A stretch of 64,000 bases of DNA. Origin: a virus. Taxonomy: Duplodnaviria; Heunggongvirae; Uroviricota; Caudoviricetes. Location of the stretch: IMG/VR virus record IMGVR_UViG_3300047560_002175, positions 1 through 64,000 of that record. The stretch is one strand, 5' to 3'. Below, piece by piece: positions 23,345-57,058 of this stretch. The notes under the pieces were generated by a model. That model worked only from the letters and a program-made list of their open reading frames with translations. It searched no databases and was not told the origin of the DNA. Each line of letters opens with the position of its first letter. Positions within the stretch are counted from its first letter, which is position 1. Made by a program: the position numbers and the translations under genes.

Positions 23345-23854
23345 TTATCTTAAAAAATCATGCCAATCTAAATTATATTTGATGCTATCAATTTTATGCA
23401 CACCTAGCAAATATAAAACAAAACTTGAAACGCTTGAGCCTCTCCCAACTCCCCAGACAACATTATTTTCTAAACAAGTATCTATAAAGAATTTAAGCCA
23501 TTGAAGAAGGTGCATCATATTTCTATTCTTAAATTCAGTTAGTTCTTCGTGTACACGGGTAGTTTCAATAGTTGAGTTACATTTAGCTATGCAATAAGAT
23601 TCTACATCAAAATTATAGTAATAATCAGGCATAAACCATTCATTTTGATTTAACATGTCATATTCTTCAATTGACAATGAGTTTACAGATTCATCAAATT
23701 GATGAATTTCAATTTCTGATACGGTTGATAATTGTGAAATTTCGTAACATTTTTCGGTTACAATAGTAGTTAATGGGATTTGATGCCCTGCGTACAAGGC
23801 ATCAAATATGTCTTTTTTATTAAAAATTGGATTTGAAAATTTGTCTGTTCTCAT
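23345..23854 (-). CDS. Hypothetical protein
   Basis: 169-aa ORF. Confidence 0.4.
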   Translation of the reverse strand: MRTDKFSNPIFNKKDIFDALYAGHQIPLTTIVTEKCYEISQLSTVSEIEIHQFDESVNSLSIEEYDMLNQNEWFMPDYYYNFDVESYCIAKCNSTIETTRVHEELTEFKNRNMMHLLQWLKFFIDTCLENNVVWGVGRGSSVSSFVLYLLGVHKIDSIKYNLDWHDFLR

Positions 23855-35000: not shown

Positions 35001-38000
35001 GTTACTAAATTAAACACACTGAGCGACATTGTTATTGATTATATTGCAGACGGTAGTTATAGTTCACCAAGAACAAGTGCTCGTACATATCCATTGTTAC
35101 CAGTAGGTACAACTGGAACTACAGCTTATAACTTATTCTTTGATACCGGAACAAATCCAGCTACTAAAACAACTGCTGAAACTACTATTGAAACTTCTGT
35201 ATCAACTTTCTTAAAAAATGGTGCAAACTTAAGAATTAATATTGAAGCTGGCGGTAACCGTTCAATGTTAGGTAACGATTTTGCTATGTTTAATGATTTA
35301 GCATATGGTATTTTAGCTACTAATGGTGCATTTACTGAACAAGTATGTACATTCACATATTATGCGCATACCGGGCTTTGGGCAAACAATGGTAGTAACT
35401 TACGTGGTGTAGGATGTTCAAATACATTTGGTAACTACGGTATGAGAGCATCCGGTTATGACGTTACTGAATTACCAGATAGTACAAATCTTGCTAATCA
35501 TATGATTCAAACTGCTCGAGTATATAAGCAAGGCATAGTTGCAAACGAAATGATTCCAACCGCAACTGTTCCGGCTATTGCAGTGTGGATCATTGGGTAT
35601 GATTATATTCCAACTAATGGTTCAATTATGGAAATTAATCATTCTGTTAATAGTGGAACTATCAATAGTTACACTGTAACATCGGCAGAATATACTACTA
35701 TACAATTTGCAAATCAAACTGTTCTTAAATTAAATTTAAACACAACTGACACAGGTTCTGGATCAGGTTTATCAAAAGAATTGTACGATGGACAAATGGT
35801 TTCTATTAGATCACTTAAAAATGTTAAGTTTAATAATGTTGATAATGTTAAACCAACAAGACCGTCAACTGCGTTACAATATGTTGATAATTTAAATGAT
35901 GTATATCGTATCATTGCTTACAATTTAACAGAATCAACTGGTGATATGTTAGGTGATAACATTGCAATATTACAAAGTGATAACTCATTTGCATATTACA
36001 ATTTTACAACTGATCCTAAATCAATAATAATAGGTGATCCTGATTCAAGTATCTATACTACTGTAGCATTAAACGGAGGCGCAACTACTAGTACATCATT
36101 AACTGTTACAAGTGCAACAGGTATTTTACAAGGTCACATAATTAGTGGTGTTGGCTTTACTGGACAGATAATTACTAACATTAACGGTAATGTTCTTACA
36201 TTAAGTTCAGCACCAAATGCCACACCATATGGCACTGTGTATTTTTCATTCAAAACACAAGGTTCTAAAGTAGGTGATACTAAAATTGCAGTTGATCAAG
36301 TTTCTCAATTAAGAATAATAGATCAAATTAACAAAGGCACTTATATTACAGCATGGAATGGTAGATTACATCGTGTATTGAGATATGTAACTCCAACATT
36401 TGCAGTGTCTAAAACTTATGCATCTTACAACAGTGGTACTTCTACAATGGTAGTAACTGGTTCAGCAGGATCGATTACTGCTGGTATGTTAGTTATTAAA
36501 CGAAATGCAACAACCGAAGCACTTGAATTTACCGGTACTGTAGTGTCGGCAACTGTAGTAGGTCTTACAACAGAAGTTGTGATATCAACTCCAAATCAAG
36601 TAGTAACTCCGTTAACTCAAGGCCCTGTAACATTTGGTGTAACTGCAAACGGTTATATTGAACTATCACCAAATGCATTTATAAACAATGCTGCTAATGG
36701 TGTTTCTGTTAATGCAATGACTTATCTAAGTTCAGACTTCCAAGTTGATAGTATTACTGCTAAAGTAGTAACTTTTGATATACCATTTAGTAAAGATAAT
36801 TTATTACCAAAAGTTGATAGTTATCTAACATTTGCAGGCAACTCAAATGCAAGTTATAATGGCGAATATCAAATAACCAGGGTAATAAATCAAACATTAG
36901 TAACATTGTCAACTATTACTGATTTTGTAGTAGGTATGGTTGTAACTTCACAAGTAACTACACAATTTATTACAAACTCAGGCGGTGTTTCAACATTTAC
37001 ATCAACTGCAAATCATAACATGGTATTAAATGATCCAGTAACAGTAAATGTTTCAAGTAATATGAATGGTCTTGTTCAAAGCACTACGTATTATGTTAAA
37101 ACAATTCCAACTTCAACATCGTTTACATTAAGTGCGACATCAGGCGGTACTGCATTAGGTAATTTTGGTATTGTTGTATCAGCTGGGGTTGTGATTATTT
37201 CGATAGCAACTAATTTAGGTGTATCAACGTTTACAACAAACACATCACATGGTTTAGTTTCTGGTAATACATTTGCACCAAATATCAGTACAAACAGTTT
37301 TGTTGCTGGAACTACCTATTATGTTAAAGATGTAACATCAAATACGTTTACATTAAGTGCAACATCAGGTGGTTTAGCGTTAGGAAACTTTGGAACTACT
37401 AATGTAATTTCATCGTCAGTATCATTTAAAACTCCACAGACTGCTATTATACCCGGCGGTAGTGCAATTATTCAATCTGTTTCATCTGATCCATTAGTTA
37501 AAACAATTGTAATCAGTCCTGCAGCATGGGTTCCTGCAAACTCGCCAATTAGAGCATCGTTAGCTGCAAGTGTAATGAGTATTTCAATTACATCAGGTGG
37601 TTCAGGATATACATCTGCACCATCTTTAACAATTGAAGGTGGTTCTCCAACTCAACGAGCAACTGCAACTTGTACAATTGTTAACGGTGAGATTAATGAA
37701 GTTCGTGTAATTATTAAAGGTAGTGGATATGTTTCTATACCGTCAGTTACAGTTACACCTGCGGTTGGTAATATTCCAACTTCAACTGCTGTATTATCTG
37801 TAAACTTATCAACTGCTGTATTGCGTGATGCTACTTCAACAACTGGTGTGTCTACAATACAGATGTCTGCATTGTATCCAACAGATCCAGGTACATTTGG
37901 AACTGTTACATCGATTACAGTATCTGCTGAAACTACAACTACTACTACATATAATTCAGTTAGTGGTTATTCAATGGCTTATACAGTATCATCAGGATCT

Positions 38001-41000
38001 ACAAAACCTGCAAATGATACTTGGTGCAAGGTTGAAGGTAATAGTAATGCGTTGTATAATGGATTTTTCCAAGTTATTTCAACTGCAAGCACTACAATTA
38101 CATTATTTTCTCCATTAAATCCAGGAATTTATGGAACTGGTACTACAACTATTACTTCTACTCCTACAAACGGAACAAGTACAAGTTTAGGTATTAGTAA
38201 ACCATTTAGTACTAAAGATGGATACACATTTAACATTGGTTATGCCGCAAATACATTTGCTCAAGTAACAACACGCATTAGTACATGTCGTGCTACTGGA
38301 CATGACTTCTGTGATATTGGGACAGGTGGATATAGTACAACAAATATTCCATATTCAATCTATGGTGAGCCTGCATTAAGTCGTCAAGTTTCACATGAAA
38401 CATTAGATGAAAGTGTAGGACGTTGTTTCTATGTATCAACTAACCAAGATGGTATATTTAGAGTAGGTAAATTCTTCTCAGTAGACCAAGGTACAGGTGT
38501 TGTAACACTTAGTTCAAAGACTGCATTGTCAAATATTGAAGCATTTGGATTTAGTGGCGGCGGTGCTGTTGTAAATGAATTTTCAACAGACTCAACATTA
38601 ACTGATAACTCCTCTAATAAAGTACCAGTTGAAAGTGCAGTACGTGGATATATTGATAAACGGTTAGGCATTGATCATGGTGGTTCTCCATTACCGTTCT
38701 TGTCAATTATTGGACCAGGATTTGTTCCATTAAATGGTTCAGCAAAAATGACAGGAGATTTGGTATTAGGTGGAAATGGTATTACAGGTGTTAGATCTCC
38801 AATTTCATCGTCTGATGTAGTAACTAAAGGTTATTTAGAGCAATCATTATTAGCACACAATTCATTAAATGAACTCGATGATGTAACATTAACTACTCCA
38901 AGTAACGGACAATCAATATTTTATGATTCAGTATCAGCTAAATGGAGAAATGCTGTATTCTCAGGAGATGTTTCAGTTTTAGTTCGCCCATCGACTACAC
39001 TTGACAATGTTATTGTTAGTAGAGGAACAGCATCTGGTATTGATAGTGAGTTTACATGTGATGCAAATGTTGGATTGTTTGTTGGACAACAAGTTACATT
39101 CTCTGGGACATATTCTGGTTCTGGGTTAATAAATGGTTATACTAATCCATCTACATATTTTATTATTGCAACTAATGGAACTACAACTTTCCAACTTTCA
39201 ACTGTAAAAGGTGGTGTTGCTGTTACTGCTACTGCAGGTACATTAGGTTTAACTGTAACGGTTCCGTTGATGTCAATTGCAATAGGTAGTGGAAGAATTG
39301 TTAATAGTATGATTAGTTCTGCTGCTAAAATTGATCAAAGTAAATTATCTTTGAATTTAGCAGGTACATCAACTACTACAGGCGGAACATTAGGTGTAGC
39401 AAGTTTCAGTAGTTATCAATTTAGTGTTGATGCTAACGGTTGGGTAACATTAGCTAATTCATCATCAGAAACAACCGGAACAACATTAACTAAATTGCAG
39501 CATGTTCCAGCTAAAACTGTATTGAGTAACTTAACCGATGGTTCTACAAATGTTGTTGCAAATTCTGCATCTGAGGTAGTTAGAGTTGGTGAAGGTATAC
39601 AACTTGGGTCGTTTACATCAGTTGGTGTTATGACAGTTACTTCAGTTTTAAATTCAAAACCAACTGGATTTGCTGTCGTTGGTATTACAACAACAGGTGA
39701 AGGGTCAAAAATTGTTAAAACTGGTACATCAGGTGGTATTGATGTTGCTGAATTATTAATTGATGGTTATTCTGTTCTTGATGTTGATGCAACACCTGTA
39801 GGTGGAGCTGCTTCAGCAATTGTACAGTTTAAGACACCAGGTAACTACACATTCTTAACTGCAACAGGTAACAACACAGTTAATAACCCAAGTGTTATTA
39901 GTGTTGCCGGAACATTAGATGTTACTGGTACTAATAGTTCAATAAAATGTTCATCTTTATCAACCGGTAGCACAGGTACAGAAGGTACATTAACTGGAGC
40001 TTGGAAATTAGCATCAGGTAGTTCGTTAGACTTTTCAGCAGGTTTTGTAACATCTTCGTCTGCAGGGTTAACATCGAGTGATTTAAATACAATAACAAGA
40101 CCAGCATTGATATTAGATTTTGCAAATAGTAAAACACTTGATCCTCGTATTTCGTTTACTCGTAATTCAATTGGAACATATACTAATGCACAAGGTTTAT
40201 TAGTAACTGCAAGCGTTCATCAAGCAAGATTTGATTTTAATCCAACAACTGGTGTATCAAAAGGTTTGTTAATTGAAGAACAAAGAACTAATGTGTTATG
40301 TGGATCTGCATCATTTGCAATATCAGGCGGAACTAACCAATGGGTTGATAGCAGTATTTCAAGAGGGGTAGGATCAACTTCACCTGCAGGAACAGCTACT
40401 ATTACATTTACTGCATCGGCAGGAAATGCAACAATTATAAGTAACGCAGTTGCATCGGGTACTTCATACAGAACTTTTTCAATATGGTTAAAAAGAGAAG
40501 CAGGTACAGGTGATATTCAATATACATTAAATAACGGTGCTACTTGGACTACACAGGCGATTACAAGTACATTAACACGTTATAGTTGGTCTGCTTCAGT
40601 TACTAATGCAAGTGTTGGTATTAGAATTGTAACATCAGGTAATTCAATTACAATGTGGGGAGCTCAGTTAGAAGATGGAGCATTTGCAACATCTTACATT
40701 CCGACTACAACTGCTGCAGTTATAAGAAGAGCAGATGTTGCAATCGTAAATGGAACTAATTTTTCAAGATGGTATAGACAAGCCGAAGGAACATTTGTAT
40801 TAACACATGCTGCATTAGGCATTGATGCTGTTGCAAATTCATATAATGGTGTTAAAGTTCAATCTACTGATTTAACTGCGTCTATGGAAATACGATGCGG
40901 GTCAACTGGTACAGGTTTATTGTATGATGTAAAAGGTTTAACTAATACTGGTACTACTCAGTTTGATTTTATTGGATATTCAACATTAACAGTAAATACT

Positions 41001-41210
41001 CCAGTTATGCAAGCATTTGGTTATAAGGCAAATGATTGTGCATATAGTGTAAATGGTGATGTTGCAGAAGAAGATACTGTAGCAACTATTCCAACTACAA
41101 TTGCTGAAATGGTAATCGGAGGCGCAGGCGCACAATATATCGAAAGAATTGCGTATTATCCACGTAGGTTAACTAACTTGGAAATTCGTTCACTCACATC
41201 AACTCTATAA
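29085..41210 (+). CDS. Giant (4041 aa) tail-fibre-like structural protein with repeated internal modules and a C-terminal LamG/ConA-like lectin-type domain
   Basis: N-terminal GNDGTGDSIREAFSKVNDNFSEIY (phage fibre N-terminal motif). At least 7 copies of a C.RD.gyv.DA...Dl.yGG..QS..AG..F module. Three copies of a YYVK...FTLSATSGG.ALGNFG module. Two GSGY..P..T repeats. C-terminal WGAQLEDGAFATSYIPT. Confidence 0.7.
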   Translation: MAKKIIEIGVQGNDGTGDSIREAFSKVNDNFSEIYAVFKSEGKINFSDLSDGCTYISDQLITASHDGTTLIARDLVPGNGIFISATSSAITIEAQAASLSNDLKPEISAPFNANKFAIGRLSDPSEDLVDLFNLVYDIPTTLDELPVTVGYANRRYAQLTESGVIGVLENGVIVPSPIQTRAEPTTPDITNPLYDPTLTGNYLSTEVLPRKDVVYRGGDKMTGALILNDHPGAMAGTVGAMFDSDLQAATAFYVDNKTFTSNVNLYVSAASGDDLQLRTPAGKEGRYWNYAFKSIGAALLHAESLINLASQEPGPYKQRISYTLGADQTFSTVQRVRLTGGESTTPGYVAAFNLLQANRSFIQSETISYINKKYVNKFSYNKTLFSNRIEFLIKAVCDDLLLGATDPDTSVPGTNYRSIRSAVKYLHDDPYLEQSIQWLSAIEFIRNQIIEFTYDGPALQDYTTQLVTALCYDLIFSSNYQSIQAGIAFKNAGTKVSAEQLGSMLTIKPINILSVTVNGGVVTLNFLTQSSAFLLNSEILIDAVFTNVDDETNEIIIKPSETVNNVTTITSVTIDSASTVSSVSFRKGGYPFINDGTYTVTGSFDRKNLINLLLLTPGITTYPSSAVDITANATIVRDIVLTGTIPEPVMPTPNNPPAGYNVLGHVHAKSLLLDNISFIQAEVVAYLSSEFPDVSYNRELCLRDVKYIIWSLAYDLTYGGNSQSVYAGKKYWNNSTNFIIASEKTACVSVINYINTLAQAVIINSATTTTYQQSVRQYRNDTLTNGNVASASIASNVATIAAIVTSLSNVPAIINPSVTTGLAEMQTIFDRITADIGNYTDDTKSTSTIWYLDSYFPVIKTLTDKDKINNLFDQIISIVSGGVYPSVVPVYPIVTIPTPVNVNVTDAWIVQATGLLDQTAINTIAQSTNSYIASVYTTITYNSTTLQNDIKDLLFAAIYDLKYGGTLASFDVATTFTLLGSNVNTQKTIVQAAIDHAWSLTNTLLVGNITGDTSNHTVNKLREKFTFASSYFSNNPPIQGDDITVSLFSTTTYDNATKLRTLILNSLSTISNDTLTYIDSVFKGGFTYDESLCYRDLGLIIDAMSIDLITGGTYQSINAGKSFYKNSSARAVSIGTQYTQSFDGIMFAQSVALQVLNKQLKNRYQLLPQITQFATTNPSNLTYISTGELPTDSIGVTGDRSLPVSQNAIDTFVANMLRLTDIIQYGISVAATPSFGSGIWNLLIDNGGRGYVDQGSPSNNDLFPAKVIVGVGTSSIAASNAYGSIVTYTYGSDISGAPLVLGDVDTLQVRLTKPGFFKSAYTLVDLNWSFVGTTVTVTKANHTITQGTRIIVNFAQFFGSGSNAPIGTWIVSAVTTNTFSFVTSLAPIGTSTLMTVTVQVGEQIEFGETVRDLQLTMFIESGIYYEDYPLRVSSNISIKGDEFRRTIIRPKDRISQSPWRKIFFYRDAIVDALEVGLIDYTGTNYAPSGITASLDGVTNKIVVTLSGNFQAPLSWVGKVFADTNTTNGNAKRGKAVVDSVSGNTINCTVIYPFSVSGLYAAGSWKLFGTINYGRHYLTNPLDVTSTAKNNKDIDVLLCNEGTRIVGVTFQGHGGFAMVLDPEGNIKTKSPYIQECASFTQSNNYKRFAGGQYIDGFAGRLYGNIIGVSNDGITVTVQGETNSGLDIRPPQPPCSFYVRGKRYQIDDIVSFDATTATVVLTLDKTTPYLHTTSGVLTYDDVKAKRDIGYVLDAIASDAALGTTYRSVHAGRSFLKIYSSRLVGDLQDLTIAGINKALELSNTTLSGSTYSSIRTQYATNIAIITSMISNGVNATPTIVWSTSSTADDNLARNIIQNNKAFIKSEISAYIAQYFTLGDYPRYNVLTSERDVGYVLDAMTYDMFYGGDSQTKDSAEAFFYNNTSYIPDENVICSAAYTRLKAVLAAVVAGSPVVVSSGNSVSQILTNPPASSAGYVTKLNTLSDIVIDYIADGSYSSPRTSARTYPLLPVGTTGTTAYNLFFDTGTNPATKTTAETTIETSVSTFLKNGANLRINIEAGGNRSMLGNDFAMFNDLAYGILATNGAFTEQVCTFTYYAHTGLWANNGSNLRGVGCSNTFGNYGMRASGYDVTELPDSTNLANHMIQTARVYKQGIVANEMIPTATVPAIAVWIIGYDYIPTNGSIMEINHSVNSGTINSYTVTSAEYTTIQFANQTVLKLNLNTTDTGSGSGLSKELYDGQMVSIRSLKNVKFNNVDNVKPTRPSTALQYVDNLNDVYRIIAYNLTESTGDMLGDNIAILQSDNSFAYYNFTTDPKSIIIGDPDSSIYTTVALNGGATTSTSLTVTSATGILQGHIISGVGFTGQIITNINGNVLTLSSAPNATPYGTVYFSFKTQGSKVGDTKIAVDQVSQLRIIDQINKGTYITAWNGRLHRVLRYVTPTFAVSKTYASYNSGTSTMVVTGSAGSITAGMLVIKRNATTEALEFTGTVVSATVVGLTTEVVISTPNQVVTPLTQGPVTFGVTANGYIELSPNAFINNAANGVSVNAMTYLSSDFQVDSITAKVVTFDIPFSKDNLLPKVDSYLTFAGNSNASYNGEYQITRVINQTLVTLSTITDFVVGMVVTSQVTTQFITNSGGVSTFTSTANHNMVLNDPVTVNVSSNMNGLVQSTTYYVKTIPTSTSFTLSATSGGTALGNFGIVVSAGVVIISIATNLGVSTFTTNTSHGLVSGNTFAPNISTNSFVAGTTYYVKDVTSNTFTLSATSGGLALGNFGTTNVISSSVSFKTPQTAIIPGGSAIIQSVSSDPLVKTIVISPAAWVPANSPIRASLAASVMSISITSGGSGYTSAPSLTIEGGSPTQRATATCTIVNGEINEVRVIIKGSGYVSIPSVTVTPAVGNIPTSTAVLSVNLSTAVLRDATSTTGVSTIQMSALYPTDPGTFGTVTSITVSAETTTTTTYNSVSGYSMAYTVSSGSTKPANDTWCKVEGNSNALYNGFFQVISTASTTITLFSPLNPGIYGTGTTTITSTPTNGTSTSLGISKPFSTKDGYTFNIGYAANTFAQVTTRISTCRATGHDFCDIGTGGYSTTNIPYSIYGEPALSRQVSHETLDESVGRCFYVSTNQDGIFRVGKFFSVDQGTGVVTLSSKTALSNIEAFGFSGGGAVVNEFSTDSTLTDNSSNKVPVESAVRGYIDKRLGIDHGGSPLPFLSIIGPGFVPLNGSAKMTGDLVLGGNGITGVRSPISSSDVVTKGYLEQSLLAHNSLNELDDVTLTTPSNGQSIFYDSVSAKWRNAVFSGDVSVLVRPSTTLDNVIVSRGTASGIDSEFTCDANVGLFVGQQVTFSGTYSGSGLINGYTNPSTYFIIATNGTTTFQLSTVKGGVAVTATAGTLGLTVTVPLMSIAIGSGRIVNSMISSAAKIDQSKLSLNLAGTSTTTGGTLGVASFSSYQFSVDANGWVTLANSSSETTGTTLTKLQHVPAKTVLSNLTDGSTNVVANSASEVVRVGEGIQLGSFTSVGVMTVTSVLNSKPTGFAVVGITTTGEGSKIVKTGTSGGIDVAELLIDGYSVLDVDATPVGGAASAIVQFKTPGNYTFLTATGNNTVNNPSVISVAGTLDVTGTNSSIKCSSLSTGSTGTEGTLTGAWKLASGSSLDFSAGFVTSSSAGLTSSDLNTITRPALILDFANSKTLDPRISFTRNSIGTYTNAQGLLVTASVHQARFDFNPTTGVSKGLLIEEQRTNVLCGSASFAISGGTNQWVDSSISRGVGSTSPAGTATITFTASAGNATIISNAVASGTSYRTFSIWLKREAGTGDIQYTLNNGATWTTQAITSTLTRYSWSASVTNASVGIRIVTSGNSITMWGAQLEDGAFATSYIPTTTAAVIRRADVAIVNGTNFSRWYRQAEGTFVLTHAALGIDAVANSYNGVKVQSTDLTASMEIRCGSTGTGLLYDVKGLTNTGTTQFDFIGYSTLTVNTPVMQAFGYKANDCAYSVNGDVAEEDTVATIPTTIAEMVIGGAGAQYIERIAYYPRRLTNLEIRSLTSTL

Positions 41211-43275: not shown

Positions 43276-46200
43276 ATGACACTACCATTAAGCAATAATG
43301 CTATATCAATGGGACAAGTTAACACTGAATTAAACTTAGCAGCCAATGCACAAATATCATTAAATGATCCTGCAGTTCGTACATTACTTGCAAAAACAGG
43401 TGATAAGACAACCATTTCGTTAGCAGACGGTTGGGGTAAATCTAACATTGGAGCTGTAACAAATCTTGCAGTTACAAATGGATCAGTTACTGTTATGTCA
43501 GCTACTGTTACATGGACTACACCTGCAACAGGAACTATAACAAAATATGAAATTTATGCAAAAGATGCAAATAATGTAGTTAAAGGTTTAATAACAATTA
43601 ATGCACCATTTTCTCCAATACCAACATCTGCAACAGTAACTGGTATGGCGTCAAATACTGCATATACCATTTATGTTACTACGTCAAACACATCGTCAAG
43701 TGCAACTGCAAGTGCAACTGTTCCGGTAACAACATTAGCATACAACTTCCCATTTACTACAGTTTCCAATGTAAATCCAAATACAGTTACATCATCAACT
43801 GTGGTTTCAGTTGGTGGATTACCAGTAAATCAAATTGTTACAGTTTCGGTCTCAGGTAGTGCTGGCGCACAATTTGCTGCAGCAAGCACACAAGCTGGTG
43901 CAACTTCATTTACGTCAACTTCTGGATTATACACAGCATCATCAAGTGGTATATTATATGTTGCTGCTCGAGTCACTTCAGGAACATTTTTAGCTGATGC
44001 AACTGCAACTGTTACAGTTGGTGATGGCAGTAGTACATTCACTGCAACTACACGAGCAGCTGATATATCTCCATCAAACACAGTGCCAATTATAATTCCA
44101 GCAAAAATAGATGTTCCTATCAATTCAGCAGTAACGTCAGAACAGTTTACAATTACTGGATTAGAACCAAATTATACTGGATTAGTAATTAGTGCATCGG
44201 CTGGCGCAACATTTGTTGCAGGTCCAACTAGTGGATCGTTACCGTCAGTTTATGTAAATTCTGGGACATTTACAGTTGGCGCAGACACTAACATTTATAT
44301 TAAAGCAAGAGTAACATCGAGCTCATTATTTGGAGCTGATGTAACTGGAACTTATACTATTGGATCAGGTACAGCCACATTTAAAGCTACAACAACTTCA
44401 AATGCATTTACTATTCCTGCAAAAACTGGACAGGCAATTAATACATTAATTACTTCAGATTCAATACTTGTTACTGGTCTTGAATATTCTACAAGTTATC
44501 AAGTATCAGTTGCAAATGGGTCTGGTTCTACAGGTGCAGCTTATGAAGCAGTTACTGGTACAGGTACGTTAACAGGAACATTTACATCATCTACTACATC
44601 AGTAACATCATCTGCTGTAGGTGAAATAAGAGTACAAGTAAGAGTTCAATCAAGTACACAAGGTTCTACAACAACTAGTGCTACATTATCAATTGGATCT
44701 TATAAGTCAGGTACATTTAGTGTAACAACACCAGTTCCTGATACAAGTCCAACATTTGGATCAACTTTTGCAGCTATTACAAACGTTCCGTTAGGTTCGT
44801 TAATTTTAGCAGCAGAATCTCCAATAACAGTAACCAGTTTAGAACCAAATTATAATATTCCAGTTAGTGTTACTGGTGGGTATTATTATATATCATCATC
44901 AACATTTACACCAGGTAATGTAACATTTATTAATACCGACTCAACAGTTACAACACCGACCGGTACATTGTATCTTGGTCTTAAAGCATCTGCTAACTCG
45001 TCTTCGTTTTTAACTGATTCGACTGCAACTGTAACTATAGGTTCGGGATCAACTTCGTTTAAAGTTACAACTACAACAGGAACATTTTCATTTACAACAG
45101 CTTCAAATCTTAATATAAGCACATCTTCAACTTCAAATGTTATAGCAGTAAATGGTTTACCATATCCGGGTACTGTTACAGTTAGTATACCAAACGCTGA
45201 TGCTAAAGTTGATGCAGGTACAACAACATCAATGAGCGGAACATATGAGTTTATTAAGAGTAATGTTTCTACTGTACAAGACGGAACTGGCGGTAAGGTT
45301 TATTTAGCAATCCGAGGAACATCGAGTGATTTATTCTCAACTACCGTTACATATACTGCCAGCATAGCATACACGCAAGGAACAAAATCTGGTACTTATA
45401 GTATTGGAACAAGAGCAGCAGTTACACAACCATCGACTCAATTTACATTTACAGATTTAACTGGACAGGCAAGATCTTCAACAATTACATCTAGTCAGAT
45501 TTCAATTACTGTAGAACCTAATTATACTCACACTATCACTGCTACTACAAATACTGGTACAACTGTAGGAGTTGATGCAGGTACAACTACATCAATGAGT
45601 GGTTCTTATGGTACATCAAAATCAGTAACAACTGATGGAACTGGTGTAATTTATATAACGGCATCGGTACAAACAGGTACTGCATATTCGACTGCATATA
45701 ATTGTACAATAACCGTTGGCACAATGTCTGATACTTTTACAGCAACAACTCTTGTACAGATTATTATTCCAGGATCAATCACATTGGGATTTAGTGGCAC
45801 TACATCAAGTTCAACTACAATGACTATTTCAGCTGGAAGCGGAAGTGCACCTGATTCATATTATTATGAAAGATACACAGATGCTGCATATACTGCTAAT
45901 AAGTTTACTGGAACAAGTCAAAGTTCAAATAGTTTTTCAGTTAGCTTACCAAGTTCAAACACTACTTATTATATTAAAGGTTTTGCAACTAATACTGCAG
46001 GAACAGGTTCAGGAACAGGTTCAGTTACATCAGCTGCAGCAGCACCAACAAGTGCTTCGATAGCATTTTCGTCAATTGCTGAAACATCTGCAACATTAAC
46101 TGTTACATCGACTGGTGCAACAACATGGGGTTATCAGCAATATACTGATGCAAATTATAATGTAGCAGTCGGAAGTACTGTATCAAGTAATGCTACAAAT

Positions 46201-48642
46201 AGTTTTGGGTTGTCAAGTTTAACAGGTGCAACTTATTATTATTTTAAAGGGTATGGTTCAAATACTGGTGGATCATCACCGTATTCAGCAGGACAATCAG
46301 TTTTAACAGTTCCTGGGTCAGTATCGGTGACTGCATCAACTCCAGTTTGGAATGCAGCTAGTTCAGTTTACACTTATACTATTAGTCTTTCGTATACCGG
46401 AACGGTTTCATCGTGGATAGCATATAGAGGACAAAATCCAAATTTAACTGCACCAACCGCACTTGGTACTGGAATTTTACCAAGTTCGTCATTTTCTGCA
46501 ACATCAGCTGTAAGTACAACTACATATTATTCAGGAAAGGCAACTAATGCATCTGGAACATCTGCGTCATATGGGCCAACTATATCAGTAACAGTTGGAG
46601 CTGCTCCAATTACTGCACCATCTAGTGCATCAATTGCATCTTCGTCAATTACTGAAACTACGTTAACATTGACTATTACATCTACTAATGCTACAACTTG
46701 GGGTTATCAAGAATATACTAACTCAAATTATAACGTAGCAGTTGGAAATGCTGTATCAAGTACGTCTACAAATAGCTTTGGTGTAACAGGTCGTACTGGT
46801 GGTTCTACATATTATTATGCAGGTTTTGGTTCAAATGCATCGGGAACATCGCCGTATTCTACAGGAATATCAGTATTAATGAAACCAAGTACACCAACAT
46901 TAACAGTTAGTAGTACACCATCCTGGAATGCAACTACATCAAAATATGATTATAGTACAACTTATTCTGGAGGTGGAACAACAGTTTCTAGTTATAAATT
47001 GTATCAAGGAACTTCAACAAGTGATTCTAATCCTACATTGTTAGGATCTAGTATTGTTGCGGTAGGTGTGACAGCTTCTACTAGCATGTACCTTAGGGCA
47101 ACTGCAGTTAACACTTCAGGTGAGTCTAGTGCAACTGGGTATGCTACTATAACTGCACCAGCAGCACCAATAACACCAGCAGCTCCAACAATAACGTTTA
47201 CAGCAGGAACTGGTACAGGAGTTACAGTAACTATTTCAAGTACAAATGCAACCGCATACAAATATAGTTACGCAACAACTACACCGTCATCTGCATCAAC
47301 TGATAGCAATGGCACTGTTACAATAGCTAATGGTACACTGTCAACTAACACAACGTATTATTTCGTTGCAATTGCAATAAGAACTGCAGGTGGTGTAACT
47401 ACACAATCAGCACTATCAAGTGCATATTCATATGCAACACCAGCACCGGCAGTTGGTACTGCATCTATTACTATATCTGATGTAGGTATAAGAAGTATTA
47501 AAGGAACAGTTTCTGCAACCAATGCAACTTACTACTATACACAAAATTACGATCCATATGCAGTCGGTGTTTGGCCAACTCCAAGATATAGACCATCAAG
47601 TTCATCACAATGGACCACTAGTACTGCATTTTCTCAAAACATACCTAGCGGACAAGCTATGTATGTATTAGCAATTAATTATAAATCTGGGTTTAATCCA
47701 TATTCATCGACTGACGGATGGACAGGTGTAAATTCATTTTCAGAAGGATATTCGTCTGGAACTGTTACACTAGTAGCATCTACTGGAACATACAATTCTC
47801 CTTCAACATCTACTGCGTCATTAGCAATACCATGGGATGTTGTTAAAATTAGAATCAGTGCAACCGGCGGCGGCGGTGGAGGCGGTGGTGCTAACTCAGT
47901 TAATAATGACGGTACTGGAGGTGCAGGTGGTGGATCACCGACATTGGCTGCAACATTTAATAAACCATCAGGCCAAACACACTTACTGATTTCAGTAGGC
48001 GGTGGCGGATACAGTGGTAACGGCGGTGGTTATACAAGTGGAAGTGGCACTGGCGGTAATGGTGGTATTGGTATATCTGGATATGCAGGTGGTGCAGGTG
48101 GCACTAAAGGCGGCACTGGAGTTTCAGGTGGTGGCGGTGGCGGTGGCGGCGCTTCTGTAGTTTCTACATACCCTAATAGCTATACATTAATAGTAGTAGG
48201 CGGTGGCGGTGGCGGACTCGGTGGTACATATCAATATAAAAGCAACATACCAATCGGTGGTGTAGTAACATCGTATTCGGGTAAAACTGACTATTCGGGA
48301 ATGGTTAATGGTACTGCCGGTGCAACACCAATTGCAACCGTTAACGGTGGTGGCGGTGGCGGTGGCGCCGGACCAGGCGGAGCAGGTGGGGTTGCTGGTA
48401 AAGACAGTGTAAATCTACCCGGAATAGGCGGTGCAAGTGCAGTATATTATAACAGTACTTATTATGTCGGGTCTGGTGCAACTTGGACTGCAGCACCTAC
48501 TGCACTTGTAACATCAACGTCTACTGATGCACCAGGTACCGGTGGTAAAGGTGGAACTTCATTTAGTAATACTAATTATATTGCAGCTGATTCATGGGCT
48601 GGATCTGCCGGACAGGTAACTTATACATTCTATGATGTATAA
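43276..48642 (+). CDS. Large (1788 aa) Ser/Thr-rich structural protein with FN3-like repeats and a poly-Gly-rich C-terminal domain
   Basis: Repeated ...TW.Y..YT..NY...G...S...N.F...T..TYYY.K... modules. C-terminal GGGGGGGGAN...GGGGYSGNGGGYTSGSGTGGNGG tracts. Confidence 0.6.
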   Translation: MTLPLSNNAISMGQVNTELNLAANAQISLNDPAVRTLLAKTGDKTTISLADGWGKSNIGAVTNLAVTNGSVTVMSATVTWTTPATGTITKYEIYAKDANNVVKGLITINAPFSPIPTSATVTGMASNTAYTIYVTTSNTSSSATASATVPVTTLAYNFPFTTVSNVNPNTVTSSTVVSVGGLPVNQIVTVSVSGSAGAQFAAASTQAGATSFTSTSGLYTASSSGILYVAARVTSGTFLADATATVTVGDGSSTFTATTRAADISPSNTVPIIIPAKIDVPINSAVTSEQFTITGLEPNYTGLVISASAGATFVAGPTSGSLPSVYVNSGTFTVGADTNIYIKARVTSSSLFGADVTGTYTIGSGTATFKATTTSNAFTIPAKTGQAINTLITSDSILVTGLEYSTSYQVSVANGSGSTGAAYEAVTGTGTLTGTFTSSTTSVTSSAVGEIRVQVRVQSSTQGSTTTSATLSIGSYKSGTFSVTTPVPDTSPTFGSTFAAITNVPLGSLILAAESPITVTSLEPNYNIPVSVTGGYYYISSSTFTPGNVTFINTDSTVTTPTGTLYLGLKASANSSSFLTDSTATVTIGSGSTSFKVTTTTGTFSFTTASNLNISTSSTSNVIAVNGLPYPGTVTVSIPNADAKVDAGTTTSMSGTYEFIKSNVSTVQDGTGGKVYLAIRGTSSDLFSTTVTYTASIAYTQGTKSGTYSIGTRAAVTQPSTQFTFTDLTGQARSSTITSSQISITVEPNYTHTITATTNTGTTVGVDAGTTTSMSGSYGTSKSVTTDGTGVIYITASVQTGTAYSTAYNCTITVGTMSDTFTATTLVQIIIPGSITLGFSGTTSSSTTMTISAGSGSAPDSYYYERYTDAAYTANKFTGTSQSSNSFSVSLPSSNTTYYIKGFATNTAGTGSGTGSVTSAAAAPTSASIAFSSIAETSATLTVTSTGATTWGYQQYTDANYNVAVGSTVSSNATNSFGLSSLTGATYYYFKGYGSNTGGSSPYSAGQSVLTVPGSVSVTASTPVWNAASSVYTYTISLSYTGTVSSWIAYRGQNPNLTAPTALGTGILPSSSFSATSAVSTTTYYSGKATNASGTSASYGPTISVTVGAAPITAPSSASIASSSITETTLTLTITSTNATTWGYQEYTNSNYNVAVGNAVSSTSTNSFGVTGRTGGSTYYYAGFGSNASGTSPYSTGISVLMKPSTPTLTVSSTPSWNATTSKYDYSTTYSGGGTTVSSYKLYQGTSTSDSNPTLLGSSIVAVGVTASTSMYLRATAVNTSGESSATGYATITAPAAPITPAAPTITFTAGTGTGVTVTISSTNATAYKYSYATTTPSSASTDSNGTVTIANGTLSTNTTYYFVAIAIRTAGGVTTQSALSSAYSYATPAPAVGTASITISDVGIRSIKGTVSATNATYYYTQNYDPYAVGVWPTPRYRPSSSSQWTTSTAFSQNIPSGQAMYVLAINYKSGFNPYSSTDGWTGVNSFSEGYSSGTVTLVASTGTYNSPSTSTASLAIPWDVVKIRISATGGGGGGGGANSVNNDGTGGAGGGSPTLAATFNKPSGQTHLLISVGGGGYSGNGGGYTSGSGTGGNGGIGISGYAGGAGGTKGGTGVSGGGGGGGGASVVSTYPNSYTLIVVGGGGGGLGGTYQYKSNIPIGGVVTSYSGKTDYSGMVNGTAGATPIATVNGGGGGGGAGPGGAGGVAGKDSVNLPGIGGASAVYYNSTYYVGSGATWTAAPTALVTSTSTDAPGTGGKGGTSFSNTNYIAADSWAGSAGQVTYTFYDV

Positions 48643-52823: not shown

Positions 52824-52852
52824 ATTATACAGCAATTAGCTAATGTTGTCAA
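52824..52852 (-). promoter_or_regulatory. Sigma70 consensus promoter (TTGACA-17-TATAAT) for the DNA ligase
   Basis: Minus strand reads TTGACAACATTAGCTAATTGCTGTATAAT. Confidence 0.6.
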
Positions 52853-52955
52853 GAGTTAATCATCTAATAAAAACATTAGTATTGCCAGTGTTGAAATGAT
52901 TGCGCACATTACTGCACCAAATTCGTCTGCTACATTAGTCATAAGTATTCCCCCA

Positions 52956-53007: not shown

Positions 53008-53712
53008 TTAGTCTTTGGAACTAAGGATGTTTAATAAACTTAAAAATAAGTTGATAAAATCCAAATACAAGTTCAATGCACATAACAGTTCGGTATTAGT
53101 GTTTGCGCTATATCTGAGCATTTCTTGAGTTTTCTGAACATCGTATGCAGTAAAGCCCATAAACACAATAATAGTAATGCCACTAATAACTAAACTGAAT
53201 ACTGAACTCATAACAAAGATATTAATCAGCCCAGCAAAAATCAATGCAATTAAACCAACCATTAAAAAGTCACCCCATGATGACAAATCTCGTCGTGTAT
53301 AAGCACCATATACTGCCATAGAACCAAATAGCACTGCTGCACTGGACAATGCAGTAGCAACTGATTCAAACGAAGCCATTGCTATTGCTGGCCCCATCAT
53401 AACACCAATCATCGATGAAACGATTAAAAATCCAACATAACCAACGACTGAACTAGCATCATCGTTAGTTAAAAACCAAGCTAATAACATTATTGCAGGT
53501 AATGGTGCAAATATTGAAACCCAAAGCATAGGGCCGGTGTATAAGAAATGCATTAGTGCAGGACTGGCATAGACTGCTGCAACTGTCAAAAATGACGTTA
53601 AGATTGATAAGAACACATTTTTATATACACGCACCATTGGTGTATATACAAGTTCTTTTTGTAAAGCTGATAACATATTATTCTCCTTTATATTTAGGTT
53701 GTTGACCTGCAC
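53008..53712 (-). CDS. Bax-inhibitor-1 / YccA-family seven-TM membrane protein
   Basis: MAVYGAYTRRDLSSWGDFLMVGLIALIFAGLINIF and ISGITIIVFMGFTAYDVQKTQEM match the BI-1/YccA signature. Confidence 0.7.
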   Translation of the reverse strand: MQVNNLNIKENNMLSALQKELVYTPMVRVYKNVFLSILTSFLTVAAVYASPALMHFLYTGPMLWVSIFAPLPAIMLLAWFLTNDDASSVVGYVGFLIVSSMIGVMMGPAIAMASFESVATALSSAAVLFGSMAVYGAYTRRDLSSWGDFLMVGLIALIFAGLINIFVMSSVFSLVISGITIIVFMGFTAYDVQKTQEMLRYSANTNTELLCALNLYLDFINLFLSLLNILSSKD

Positions 53713-53962
53713 TTGCCATAATAATTTCTTTATTAGGTCCGCAGGAATAAAATTCTACTTCGTAAAGATCTCTCGCGTGACCTAAGTATGTACACCCAAG
53801 AGGTTTTGAAATTGCTCGTCTTTGATCAGTGTATTTTACAGTATTAAATGTTAATCCTCCAACTACTGCTAACCCAACCATTACAACTGTTACTAATGCG
53901 GATTGAAATATCAGTCCGCCTAATACTCCTAAGAAAATTATTAGTATCATTGTTAAAATCAT
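53678..53962 (-). CDS. Small two-TM membrane protein
   Basis: 94-aa ORF overlapping both neighbours. Confidence 0.35.
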   Translation of the reverse strand: MILTMILIIFLGVLGGLIFQSALVTVVMVGLAVVGGLTFNTVKYTDQRRAISKPLGCTYLGHARDLYEVEFYSCGPNKEIIMASAGQQPKYKGE

Positions 53963-54987
53963 TCTGTAACTCCTTTAGAATTGTGATAATTATATAGTTC
54001 AAATGAAGCAAGGTTTTTGCCTTTGCTTTCTGCCATTATGTCAAAGTTATCTAAAAAGCTCAATGCCCAGTCATTGACTGCAACATTCCAGTAAAAGTTA
54101 GAATGAGCTCGAAGTTTTTGTTTATTTAATCCAGATTCAAGCAATAGTTGAAGTTCTGGCAAAGTTTGTTTGTTATGGGTTGGTAGCACATCTTCCCTAC
54201 TAATAGAATAATGCATAGTGGGGCGACGACCACGCCAGCTATCAATAACCCTTTGTACGCGCTCATCGTCCGGCTGTATGTATTCGCCTGTTTTAATAAA
54301 GTGATGGTGTATATCCAAAACCACAGGTACTCTACTAGCAAGGGTAAGGCAGTCATCAAGTCCAAAAGAAATCTCCTCATTTTCTACAGTAATACAATTT
54401 TTAGCAACATCGCTTAATCTTTCGTAAGCGTCTAAGAAACCTTGTGGACCACGTTTACCTGCAATATGCACATTGATTTTCATATCCTGAAATTCCTTGC
54501 CATATCCCATCCAACGTGCCATGTCTGCATGATATTCAAATTCTTCAATACTGCGTTCAACTACGTCATCTCGATCAGATGCTAGTACACAAAACTGACC
54601 TGGGTGGAAACTAAGTTTAATATCATTCGTTTTTGCAATTTCGCCAACACGAGCAAACTCACGCGCAATATAAGCAATCACATCAGGTTTTTTGTAAAAG
54701 TAAGAATAGTTTTCGTGTGTGTAAACAGGAAGTATATCGCTACTAATACGTAACATACGTAATGGTTGTGGAAGTGTAGAAACTTTGAGTACTAATTTAC
54801 GAGTAGCTTCAATATTTTGTTTTATTAGTTCCCACAGTTTTTTCTCAGCATTAGCTGGGAGTTGTCTGCCAAGCCAAGCAACTGTAGTAGTGCCTGTGTT
54901 ATATTTTTTACAATCGTCAGTTGATTTAATTCCGTCAACTTGATGCGGAAAATCAATAAACTTGCAAGCAAAGCCTATTCTGTACAT
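53959..54987 (-). CDS. uvdE: UV-damage endonuclease UvdE
   Basis: RISSDILPVYTH, SFHPGQFCVLAS, INVHIAG, ITVENEE, LDIHHHF and DIMAESKGKNLA line up with Bacillus/S. pombe UVDE. Confidence 0.8.
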   Translation of the reverse strand: MYRIGFACKFIDFPHQVDGIKSTDDCKKYNTGTTTVAWLGRQLPANAEKKLWELIKQNIEATRKLVLKVSTLPQPLRMLRISSDILPVYTHENYSYFYKKPDVIAYIAREFARVGEIAKTNDIKLSFHPGQFCVLASDRDDVVERSIEEFEYHADMARWMGYGKEFQDMKINVHIAGKRGPQGFLDAYERLSDVAKNCITVENEEISFGLDDCLTLASRVPVVLDIHHHFIKTGEYIQPDDERVQRVIDSWRGRRPTMHYSISREDVLPTHNKQTLPELQLLLESGLNKQKLRAHSNFYWNVAVNDWALSFLDNFDIMAESKGKNLASFELYNYHNSKGVTE

Positions 54988-55011
54988 GAATACCTCGTGT
55001 TAGTAGTGAAT

Positions 55012-55037
55012 AAAAAAGGGGTCATAAGACCCCTTAT
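55012..55037 (-). terminator. Rho-independent terminator
   Basis: AAGGGGTC-ATAA-GACCCCTT hairpin plus a U-run on the minus strand. Confidence 0.6.
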
Positions 55038-55040
55038 TGT

Positions 55041-55289
55041 TTAAGCAACGTTGTGTACTGGTTCACTAAATTTTAATGCAAACCATGCAAACTTTTCATC
55101 GGAATTAAATTGAACGTATTGTTCGTTGTCACCGTCAAATACAATGTGTGCATCGTATTCTGCTAATGCTTCTTGTGCAATACGTCTAACGCCGTCTTTG
55201 TCGTTGTCAAGAATATGTTGACGAACTGTTGCCATGTACCAGTTGTCGTGAAGTTTTGTATCAAATTCTAATTTATGCATAGTAAACAC
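55041..55289 (-). CDS. Hypothetical protein
   Basis: 82-aa ORF with its own promoter and terminator. Confidence 0.4.
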   Translation of the reverse strand: MFTMHKLEFDTKLHDNWYMATVRQHILDNDKDGVRRIAQEALAEYDAHIVFDGDNEQYVQFNSDEKFAWFALKFSEPVHNVA

Positions 55290-55333: not shown

Positions 55334-55357
55334 AACAATTGCAAGTACTAAGACATT

Positions 55358-55388
55358 CAAAAAGAAAGGAGCCTAAGCTCCTTTCTGT
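55358..55388 (-). terminator. Rho-independent terminator after pmoC
   Basis: AAAGGAGC-CTAA-GCTCCTTT hairpin plus CTTTTTG on the minus strand. Confidence 0.6.
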
Positions 55389-55404: not shown

Positions 55405-56175
55405 CTACGCTAAGTTGGATTTAAGTAATTTTGAAATAGCTTGTACTTCAATATTTACCACACCTAATACACCTAAAGCAGCCCATCCAAAGAATACAAA
55501 CCCGTAGTGTAATGGTGCTACGAATAGTTCTTCCATGAACCAGAAAGTGTGTCCCCATTCGTTTAATCCAACGTTTGGAAGAATCATAAATGGCCCGATT
55601 ACAGATACCATGTATTGTAATGGTAAGCCTTTTTGGTAGGTAGGCAAGCGTGTTTTAGCATATAAGAATGCTGCGACACCTGTGATGATGTAGATAGGAT
55701 AACTTAGATAAAACTCAATAACATGACTTGGTGTAAAATCAGTATCACGGACAATCGTTTGATGCCATGTACCATCTTGTTCTGTAAAGTATGAAGCACC
55801 GTAATAAATTGCAATACCATACATTACTAACCAAACCCAGTGTGTAAAATGTCGACGCAGTTCCTCGCGAGGTGTAATTGACATTACGTTGCGATCACGT
55901 GATTTCCAAAGATAACCCCATAATACAGAAGCGGTTAGGATTTCAAGAACCATTTCAATGTATAGGAAGTTCATCCAATATGTTTCAAACTCTGGTGCAA
56001 ATGAGTCTAAACCAGCAGACCATCCATAAACACCTTCATACCAACGGACCCACCCGTAAAATACAACGTACAACGCTGCACCTGCGAGCATGTTTGTTTT
56101 GTTTAAAAGTGAAGCTTCTTTAGCTTCAGCTTTTACTGTTTCAATTGTAGCTGACATGTTGTTTCTCCTAAGCAA
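55405..56175 (-). CDS. pmoC: Ammonia/particulate-methane monooxygenase subunit C (AmoC/PmoC family, bacterial type)
   Basis: SYFTEQDGTWHQTIVRDTDFTPSHVIEFY...AFLYAKTRLP and MILPNVGLNEWGHTFWFMEELFVAPLHYGFVFFGWAAL closely match bacterial AmoC/PmoC. Six hydrophobic helices. AGGAG RBS. Confidence 0.85.
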   Translation of the reverse strand: MLRRNNMSATIETVKAEAKEASLLNKTNMLAGAALYVVFYGWVRWYEGVYGWSAGLDSFAPEFETYWMNFLYIEMVLEILTASVLWGYLWKSRDRNVMSITPREELRRHFTHWVWLVMYGIAIYYGASYFTEQDGTWHQTIVRDTDFTPSHVIEFYLSYPIYIITGVAAFLYAKTRLPTYQKGLPLQYMVSVIGPFMILPNVGLNEWGHTFWFMEELFVAPLHYGFVFFGWAALGVLGVVNIEVQAISKLLKSNLA

Positions 56176-56270
56176 GGGAAAATAAAAACGAAGTGCAACA
56201 CCCGTTACACTTCAACTCGAGTTAAAACTATTTATAATAAACTGAGTATTTTACTCTGTAAATATTATAA

Positions 56271-56298
56271 ATTGTGTTACATTATACAGTAAAAAAAT
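56271..56298 (-). promoter_or_regulatory. Sigma70-type promoter (TTGACT-16-TATAAT) about 100 nt upstream of pmoC
   Basis: Minus strand reads TTGACTTATTATTTTTTTACTGTATAAT. Confidence 0.55.
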
Positions 56299-56325
56299 AA
56301 TAAGTCAACAATTAATTTTACCAAT

Positions 56326-56532
56326 CTATCTTGGTGGGAAATCTTGCGGTGGAAGTGGATGTCCTTCATGTTTGTGATGTCTGGTATAATGATGTTCTAA
56401 ATTACCAGGTCTAATATAATCACGGTGGACAGGCTTTGAATCGCAGCCTGTCATTAAAAATACTGCAAATAGCAAACTAACGACTAGTAACAATTTCATC
56501 GACAAGCCCATACATAACACTCTCTTCAGCAC
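56326..56532 (-). CDS. Small His-rich lipoprotein (candidate periplasmic metal-binding peptide)
   Basis: Lipobox LMTGC. Mature part contains HHYTRHHKHEGH. The start may be at an internal Met because the ORF overlaps the clpP 3' end. Confidence 0.45.
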   Translation of the reverse strand: MLKRVLCMGLSMKLLLVVSLLFAVFLMTGCDSKPVHRDYIRPGNLEHHYTRHHKHEGHPLPPQDFPPR

Positions 56533-57058
56533 TCATAAAACAATCACGACTCATGTCTTGTTTAAGTTTTTCAAACGATTGTCCAGTGTTTTTTACATAC
56601 ACTTCAGTTAAATAAGTATTCAACTTTAATGTTTCTTCAAGTGCAATTTGCATGTCAATTGCAGTACCGCGTGTACCTGAACTAACTTGATGAATCATGT
56701 GTCTTGCGCTTGGAAGAATTTTACGTTTACCTTTAGCACCTGAACTAGCAAGTAAACTGCCCATACTACATGCTTGACCCATAACAATAGTAGAAACATC
56801 TGGTTTGATAAAGTTCATTGTATCGTAAATTGCAAGTCCTGCAGTAACTGAACCACCTGGGCTATTGATAAAGAAGTGGATATCTTCGGTACCTTGACTT
56901 TCTAAGAACAGTAACTGGGCAACAATAATACTTGAAGATTGTTCGTTAACATCTGTATCTAACATAATAATCCTATCTTTGAGCAATCGCGAATAAATGT
57001 CATAACTGCGTTCGCCTTTTGCTTCTTGTTCTACGACCATTGGGATTAAACTTGGCAT
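56477..57058 (-). CDS. clpP: ClpP serine protease subunit
   Basis: GQACSMGSLL (catalytic Ser) and HMIHQ (His), with the typical ClpP fold pattern. GGAG RBS. Confidence 0.85.
   Translation of the reverse strand: MPSLIPMVVEQEAKGERSYDIYSRLLKDRIIMLDTDVNEQSSSIIVAQLLFLESQGTEDIHFFINSPGGSVTAGLAIYDTMNFIKPDVSTIVMGQACSMGSLLASSGAKGKRKILPSARHMIHQVSSGTRGTAIDMQIALEETLKLNTYLTEVYVKNTGQSFEKLKQDMSRDCFMSAEESVMYGLVDEIVTSR

Follow-up and report, generated by a model that had tools for sequence, protein, structure and literature searches.

Why should a tailed phage carry a gene for one subunit of a bacterial copper membrane monooxygenase, from which bacteria would that gene have come, and what would the phage gain from it? 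The locus considered here lies in a 64-kb stretch of phage DNA, analyzed over its whole length and hereafter called the window, in which a first-pass annotation had recognized an AmoC/PmoC-like reading frame. As that annotation had noted, freshwater pmoC-phages have been reported before: Chen et al. (2020, Nat Microbiol; PMC7674155) described 22 genomes of 159-527 kb, belonging to myoviruses related to T4-like and cyanophage lineages. Phage pmoC has thus been known since 2020, and the window provides a new intact, intron-less example of it, not a new phenomenon.

The window gene encodes a full-length PmoC

The mechanical reading frame on the minus strand (55405..56175) counts 256 aa from a TTG codon. 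This frame, as first annotated, does exist, but the product is likely to be 250 aa long and to begin at ATG 56157, a start preferred because of the AGGAG upstream of it and the residue-for-residue fit to a 250-aa bacterial PmoC (Table 1). Pfam PF04896 (AmoC) is covered over the whole model (E=1.8e-121, 404.5 bits; cut-off 26.7), and the NCBIfam models NF041641 (AmoC_BACT) and TIGR03078 yield 397.4 and 357.9 bits, above their curated cut-offs of 319 and 280.6, respectively. The best solved structures are the pMMO C subunits 6cxh_C (512 bits) and 7s4l_C (510 bits), to which the product is about 89% identical from residue 1 through 250; PmoC chains in PDB score 329-512 bits, and AmoC chains 232-244 bits. 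The motifs quoted in the first-pass annotation are found in the product, bearing out its almost motif-for-motif match, and the matches fall inside the AmoC/PmoC family on the PmoC side, so that, judged by these scores, the protein is the PmoC of gammaproteobacterial methanotrophs (Methylococcales) and not AmoC.

Alignment with 1yew_C gives a constant offset of +28 from window to Methylococcus capsulatus Bath numbering, by which D128, H132 and H145 correspond to the CuC ligands Asp156, His160 and His173 of the Bath protein, and N199, H203 and H217 to Asn227, His231 and His245, the Asn/His/His set of subunit C that we take, from the 2022 cryo-EM structures (7s4h-7s4m), to belong to CuD. All six copper-site ligand positions are unbroken, including the Asp/His/His set to which attention had been drawn earlier, and the gene encodes a full-length PmoC that looks catalytically competent.

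Table 1. Coordinates of features in the window and in related phage loci
Feature	Locus	Coordinates	Strand	Remarks
pmoC CDS, 250 aa + stop, allele without intron	window	55405..56157	-	Pfam, NCBIfam and PDB full-length matches
Shine-Dalgarno AGGAG, 7 nt 5′ of ATG	window	56165..56169	-	from sequence; kept in related phage loci
Stem-loop 2 of leader + U-run, 9-11 bp, ~20 nt 5′ of RBS	window	56189..56214	-	terminator-like scan
Two leader stem-loops	window	56189-56274	-	structure conserved, sequence not
TATAAATA box in leader	window	56229..56236	-	conserved 5′ of pmoC in most of the phage groups
Candidate sigma70-type promoter, TTGACT-16 nt-TATAAT	window	56281..56308	-	11/12 match; hexamers conserved
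Intrinsic-terminator-like hairpin (10 bp, 5 GC) + T-run, 18 nt past stop	window	55353..55386	-	terminator-like scan
Small His-rich putative lipoprotein ORF	window	56326..56532		lipobox-like LMTGC; 7 His in mature part
ClpP	window	56477-57058	-	
Variable island orf82, UvdE, orf94, BI-1	window	53008..55289	-	between pmoC cassette and micro-ORF/ligase
UvdE	window	53959..54987		Pfam match 2e-41
BI-1	window	53008..53712	-	Pfam Bax1-I, 7e-45
28-aa hydrophobic micro-ORF, MTNVADEFGAVMCAIISTLAILMFLLDD	window	52856..52942	-	downstream of pmoC
Terminator-like hairpin preceding the next site	window	52988-52961		
Sigma70 consensus TTGACA-17-TATAAT, 12/12	window	52824-52852	-	directly upstream of ATP-dependent DNA ligase gene
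ClpB/ClpA-like AAA+ protein	window	11647-13926	-	phrog_4871, 819 bits
DNA polymerase fragment, 169 aa	window	23345-23854	-	phrog_11127
4041-aa ORF	window	29085-41210	+	
fn3-containing ORF, 1788 aa	window	43276-48642	+	
Intron in pmoC	L001	10615-10863		RF00028 69.2 bits
Intron in pmoC	L005	10659-10916		RF00028 86.4 bits
Intron in pmoC	L014	8659-8916		RF00028 87.8 bits
Intron in pmoC	L023	8615-8863		RF00028 63.9 bits
Intron in pmoC	L026	~8643-8890		RF00028 82.9 bits
Intron in pmoC	L044	~8130-8382		RF00028 93.9 bits
Two introns in pmoC	L045	~8588-8794 and 8888-9102		RF00028 86.6 and 90.6 bits
Predicted exon-exon junction, site A				...GGTCATACTTT joined to CTGGTTTATGGAG...
Predicted exon-exon junction, site B				...CATTA(T/C)GGGT joined to TTGTATTTTTTGG...
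Endonuclease-family gene	L001	11023-11673	-	phrog_314 E=2.8e-24
Endonuclease-family gene	L014	9032-9913	-	phrog_314 E=5.4e-12
Endonuclease remnant	L005	11038-11133		
Endonuclease remnant	L041	8786-8884		
Endonuclease remnant	L019	1320-1418		
tRNA array	L005	3155-5555		
tmRNA in array	L005	3323-3702		124 bits
Further group I intron	L005	4003-4197		75.6 bits
tRNA array	L026	1833-2204		

Phage context and stand-alone status

The window has a GC content of 35% throughout, and its pmoC is flanked by phage genes on either side. These comprise a virion and tail set (long-tail-fibre-type and virion proteins, an endolysin and a holin-like ORF), a replication and nucleotide set (clamp loader, DNA polymerase fragment, PhoH, MazG-like, QueD-like and ATP-dependent DNA ligase), and genes for ClpP, a ClpB-like ATPase, metallophosphatases and DUF2828. 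Genes for capsid, terminase or sheath were not found in the 64 kb, nor did Rfam reveal any tRNA or intron there. The phage context described earlier is real; the label T4-like is supported only loosely, by the clamp loader and the long-tail-fibre-type domains. The 4041-aa ORF has no Pfam domain, and its last ~220 residues provide its sole match, to a PHROG tail protein; a 683-aa long-tail-fibre-type protein is situated between it and the 1788-aa ORF. The DNA polymerase fragment is the only polymerase ORF seen, and the gene may be split or interrupted, as are other genes in these phages. The ClpB/ClpA-like protein, ClpP and the BI-1/YccA-family protein possibly constitute a protein-quality-control toolkit of the phage; no conserved linkage of this set to pmoC was found.

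Searches with PmoA and PmoB (tblastn) returned chance matches in the 64 kb (E>3), and neither gene was present in any of 86 phage loci. In bacteria, pmoA is located ~120 nt downstream of pmoC in essentially all of those with enough flank among 80 species-representative loci. The window pmoC is a stand-alone phage-borne gene of bacterial type for subunit C, as first proposed. This resembles the Chen et al. phages, which likewise are low-GC tailed phages carrying a gamma-type pmoC without pmoA or pmoB, with the Asp/His/His site kept and the termini diverging from those of the host (PMC7674155).

Among 50,697 GenBank phage records, neither DNA nor proteins matching those of the window were found, and no PmoC at all; PHROGs contain no family for it. 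A large protein database holds proteins 93-97% identical to the window PmoC, on contigs of 83-358 kb, and IMG/VR yielded 116 relatives of the gene, of which 80 loci were kept. The order DUF2828 ... metallophosphatase - IF1-like - ClpP - small lipoprotein - pmoC - micro-ORF - ligase is common to the window and loci L001, L013/L014 and L015, on contigs of 83-355 kb. The contig of L001 spans 355 kb, which brings to mind the >300-kb gamma-type phages LR_4, LR_5, LR_6 and LM_4, with Methylobacter as the predicted host (PMC7674155), and the window phage is probably an undescribed relative of this ~350-kb Methylobacter-phage group. It would differ from the published phages in that no recorded protein is identical to its PmoC or its UvdE, a UvdE-BI-1 island lies downstream of pmoC, and its flanks are only ~77% identical at the nucleotide level to the nearest syntenic loci. 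JGI metagenome contigs and IMG/VR gave no exact match to a 39-mer spanning the junction of pmoC and the island. The pmoC cassette is also found in unrelated backbones, such as that of L005, where the genes upstream encode a histidine kinase and a response regulator.

The C subunit is likewise carried alone by amoC viruses, both those of Thaumarchaeota and the freshwater phages of ammonia-oxidizing bacteria (bioRxiv 10.64898/2026.06.18.733297); the latter are, as the phage studied here would be, large freshwater phages, and the same HMM detects amoC and pmoC. Unlike in amoC viruses, the window protein is PmoC both by identity, as the structure scores above indicate, and by phylogeny, its nearest relatives being from Methylococcales.

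Candidate expression signals

The first-pass annotation had endowed the gene with its own sigma70 promoter and its own terminator, and both are upheld at the sequence level. Neither the two hexamers of the candidate promoter nor the 16-nt distance between them varies among the window, L015, L001/L014 and L012, whereas the intervening sequence is scrambled. Promoter-like sites occur in this AT-rich region at chance density (28 found, 24.1 +/- 5.1 expected), and the promoter claim therefore rests on conservation, not on the match. At the other end of the gene, a GC-rich hairpin occupies the same post-stop position in 10/10 phage loci inspected, with differing sequences. No terminator was detected between the upstream lipoprotein ORF and the promoter. 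A self-contained cassette, with promoter, structured leader, strong RBS, CDS and terminator, is well supported as a prediction.

Downstream of the promoter, the leader consists of a stem-loop, the TATAAATA box, stem-loop 2 and the RBS. It folds better than 200/200 shuffles (z=-3.76), and the pairing of stem-loop 2 is maintained by compensatory changes among relatives. Stem-loop 2 could serve as an attenuator or a 5′ stabilizer, or could terminate the ClpP unit upstream; since a terminator-like hairpin intervenes between promoter and RBS, pmoC expression could be attenuated or otherwise regulated. Among known cis-regulatory RNAs, the leader gave only a chance-level match to the S15 leader (15.7 bits vs 39.5), and these candidates were rejected. 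A host-derived promoter or leader was rejected as well: the upstream 173 nt, searched with blastn-short, matched phage loci only, and 0/80 bacterial pmoCAB loci. In view of this lack of homology to bacterial pmoC leaders, regulation of the gene would be phage-specific.

The TATAAATA box matches the T4 late-promoter consensus, and might conceivably be a second, T4-late-type promoter of pmoC. Its orientation bias is 12 vs 3 in 206 kb, although about five of the 12 are homologous sites and not independent. As a general T4-type late promoter it was rejected, with 6 occurrences in the window vs ~12 expected and none in front of the large structural genes. The suggestion that the unit is built for early expression by host RNA polymerase is not supported; in published data, phage pmoC is co-expressed with structural genes, read as late expression (Chen et al., PMC7674155). 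The 12/12 sigma70 consensus site in the window lies just ahead of the ligase gene (Table 1).

Origin of the gene and host guild

The nearest bacterial PmoCs, 90-92% identical to the window protein, are operonic copies from lake MAGs labeled Methylobacter, Methylomonas, Methylococcaceae or Methylococcales, and the top 80 bacterial genomes (84-92%) are all Methylococcales-type. In a neighbor-joining tree, the window protein falls among PmoCs, within a clade made up solely of phage sequences, 12 distinct ones from several backbones (bootstrap 78/100), and the neighbors of this clade are the operonic lake-MAG sequences L088/L093. Based on the nearest operonic PmoCs and on the clade placement, the host guild is that of methanotrophic Methylococcales (Methylobacter/Methylomonas-type), not ammonia oxidizers, so that of the two guilds initially offered as alternatives only the methanotrophs remain. 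The low GC of the phage, regarded at first as notable for such a host, is in fact ordinary: published pmoC-phages range from 32 to 44% (PMC7674155), and the DNA on either side of the nearest host pmoCAB operons is ~35-40% GC.

Synonymous divergence between the window gene and its nearest hosts is saturated (dS ~1.4), and phage alleles differ from each other by dS of 0.5-2 with dN/dS of 0.03-0.05, which together argue for an old acquisition followed by strong purifying selection in phages. The GC3 of pmoC (0.304) exceeds that of every other large ORF in the window (37 ORFs; mean 0.211, sd 0.045), yet lies under the values of host pmoC (0.32-0.40), as would be expected of a partly ameliorated foreign gene. 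The 19 differences between the window PmoC and that of the nearest host are unevenly spread, with 11 in residues 1-35 and three in the last 20; the 195-residue core has only five, all conservative, and is ~97% identical. The phage-specific residues S2, T7, E11 and L24 crowd into the N-terminal tail. As a whole, these observations find their best explanation in a long-ago acquisition of pmoC from a Methylococcales methanotroph by the ancestor of a large freshwater phage clade, a scenario that we consider rather probable, though far from certain.

Neighbors of pmoC

The first-pass annotation had also suggested that a His-rich lipoprotein, BI-1 and UvdE might work together with PmoC. All three genes are present, but a functional link to pmoC is not supported, given their poor conservation. 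The lipoprotein ORF, which overlaps the end of ClpP, is restricted to the syntenic group of the window, in which several of its His residues are replaced by Tyr. The island containing UvdE and BI-1 is missing from the closest syntenic relatives L001/L014/L015, in which pmoC is followed by the micro-ORF and ligase, and L012 is the one other locus, out of 86, with UvdE-orf94-BI-1 close to pmoC. Going by gene order, orf82-UvdE-orf94-BI-1 forms a variable island and is neither a conserved module nor part of the pmoC unit.

The neighbor most consistently tied to phage pmoC is the 28-aa micro-ORF, seen in 16 viral loci on several backbones and absent from the flanking 3 kb in all 80 bacterial pmoCAB loci. 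Its short hydrophobic product might act in the membrane as a partner of PmoC. Neither the micro-ORF nor orf82, orf94 or the lipoprotein has any matches in PHROGs or Pfam.

Group I introns in pmoC of related phages, and adjacent homing-endonuclease-family genes

The closest protein matches to the window PmoC were called as C-terminally truncated products of 211, 214 or 221 aa. Alignment at the DNA level shows that the pmoC of these closest relatives is interrupted by an insert of 249-258 nt, in silico removal of which restores the exact reading frame. Each insert in pmoC is a group I intron by Rfam RF00028 (gathering score 50; Table 1) and lacks an ORF. There are at least four insertion sites: CDS nt 614 (between GHTF and W), ~nt 642 (after ELFVA), nt 658 (between HYG and F), and after residue 45. 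Where the boundaries can be placed exactly, T ends the upstream exon and G ends the intron. Introns from different sites are 59-79% identical. In L005 and L014, however, the introns are identical at 258/258 positions, despite exon 1 being 87% identical and the surrounding genomes unrelated, which is a signature of recent transfer. The CDS of the window pmoC is continuous and has no RF00028 match at either the gathering threshold or E<=1.

In alleles with a site-A intron, and in L013/L014 (site B), a reverse-strand ORF of a homing-endonuclease family is found directly downstream of pmoC. The proteins, of 217 aa in L001 and 294 aa in L014, have a GIY-YIG-like N-terminus and a weak NUMOD3 match. 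Remnants of such genes are retained in several other loci (Table 1), and also in L046. No free-standing endonuclease gene is present beside pmoC in the window or in the intron-less L015; in the window, the post-terminator junction held by endonuclease genes in relatives is filled by the UvdE-BI-1 island. Elsewhere in L005, the tRNA array includes a tmRNA gene and a further group I intron, apparently beside or within a tRNA gene; L026 has a permuted/alpha-type tmRNA.

A precedent is known from cyanophage S-PM2, in which psbA contains a group I intron and is adjacent to the free-standing endonuclease F-CphI, an arrangement termed collaborative homing (PMC6083498, Zeng et al. 2009). The relatives of the window similarly pair an ORF-less group I intron in pmoC with an adjacent free-standing endonuclease gene. 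They differ from S-PM2 in that their endonucleases belong to phrog_314 and are GIY-YIG/NUMOD-like, F-CphI being EndoVII-like, and in that pmoC has at least four intron sites. At the level of the recipient gene, psbA (D1) and pmoC are alike in being phage copies of a labile, metal-site-bearing membrane core subunit of the host energy-harvesting enzyme; the enzyme and the host guild are different, and the window itself has neither intron nor endonuclease. Within the literature that could be searched, no paper linked group I introns to pmoC, nor did the 2026 amoC-phage preprint.

Taken jointly, these data make it reasonably probable that phage pmoC is the second natural case of a collaborative-homing auxiliary metabolic gene, after cyanophage psbA. 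ORF-less introns at no fewer than four sites would be mobilized with the help of free-standing endonucleases, and the intron sites would appear to concentrate in the segment encoding the CuD-site motif. The seemingly fragmented genes would be intact and in need of splicing, the window allele would be uninvaded and presumably cleavable, and the cassette together with the micro-ORF would move as a unit between unrelated backbones. We infer both the self-splicing of these introns and the specificity of the endonucleases.

Possible roles of phage PmoC

We favor, with some reservation, the view that pmoC is a phage auxiliary metabolic gene, an old acquisition from Methylococcales kept by purifying selection, the product of which replaces host PmoC. 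During infection, host RNA polymerase, possibly phage-modified, would transcribe the cassette; phage PmoC would enter the host intracytoplasmic membranes and substitute for host PmoC in (PmoABC)3, and methane oxidation would continue as host gene expression declines, supplying reductant, energy and carbon for phage replication. The logic would be the same as that of cyanophage psbA/D1. Assembly with the A and B subunits of the host is suggested by the similarity of the core to that of operonic host PmoC.

A less likely possibility, to be taken seriously nonetheless, is that phage PmoC is a condition-specific or stress-recovery subunit resembling pmoC3/amoC3, which would alter enzyme properties, metal use, stability or regulation through its divergent cytoplasmic tails. 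Singleton copies of the C-subunit gene, such as amoC3 of Nitrosomonas and pmoC3 of methanotrophs, are established as stress-responsive, and the window gene resembles them as a stand-alone C subunit with its own expression signals. The fact that 14 of the 19 residues in which it departs from the nearest host PmoC lie in the termini, together with the phage-specific residues in the N-terminal tail, would fit such a specialization, an idea also raised by Chen et al. (PMC7674155). Unlike singletons, however, the window gene resides in a phage genome and groups with operonic copies, its nearest bacterial relatives having pmoA next to them, and its core is nearly unchanged from theirs.

It is improbable that pmoC is a selfish or neutral passenger, a mobile moron that introns and homing endonucleases use as a landing pad, without benefit to the phage. 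Mobile introns and endonuclease genes at or beside pmoC of the relatives, the presence of the cassette in unrelated backbones, and partial pmoC genes in some published phage populations (PMC7674155) would be in line with this. However, dN/dS stays at 0.03-0.05 over saturating synonymous divergence and all ligands are kept, the introns sit at positions from which splicing would give back the exact frame, and expression of phage pmoC in situ is high, within the top 20 expressed phage genes in Methylobacter as host (PMC7674155). Even more doubtful is takeover or exclusion, whereby phage PmoC would poison or rewire host pMMO or block superinfection: an excess of a stand-alone subunit could in principle upset stoichiometry, an argument with no direct support, but phage and host PmoC hardly differ in their active-site and core residues, and the infected Methylobacter population was the fastest-growing methanotroph in Lake Rotsee (PMC7674155). 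Finally, although assemblies often break at pmoC owing to its similarity to the host gene (Chen et al., PMC7674155), there is hardly any chance that a bacterial pmoC was mis-assembled onto phage DNA or that the contig is bacterial or a prophage, given that independent assemblies with ~77% nucleotide identity share the order ClpP - small ORF - pmoC - micro-ORF - ligase, that leader and terminator are phage-specific and conserved, that a GC3 of 0.30 is under host values, and that pmoA is missing.

Implications for phages of methanotrophs

With the auxiliary metabolic role as the preferred reading, phage PmoC could modulate the escape of methane from lakes, and the host in question is now narrowed to Methylobacter/Methylomonas-type Methylococcales. 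The window allele is well delimited and comes with a candidate promoter, a structured leader and a terminator, making the timing and regulation of its expression testable. Of greatest interest, though, is a result from beyond the window, namely the mobile introns and endonucleases of its relatives, for which the window, with its intact pmoC as opposed to their fragmented genes, serves as the uninvaded reference allele. The comparison with these relatives further suggests that several published phage pmoC genes described as fragmented, and implicitly defective, are functional intron-containing genes, which would change the estimates of how many pmoC-phages have a working gene, and would explain the low-level transcription of a "non-coding region" reported in Lake Rotsee.
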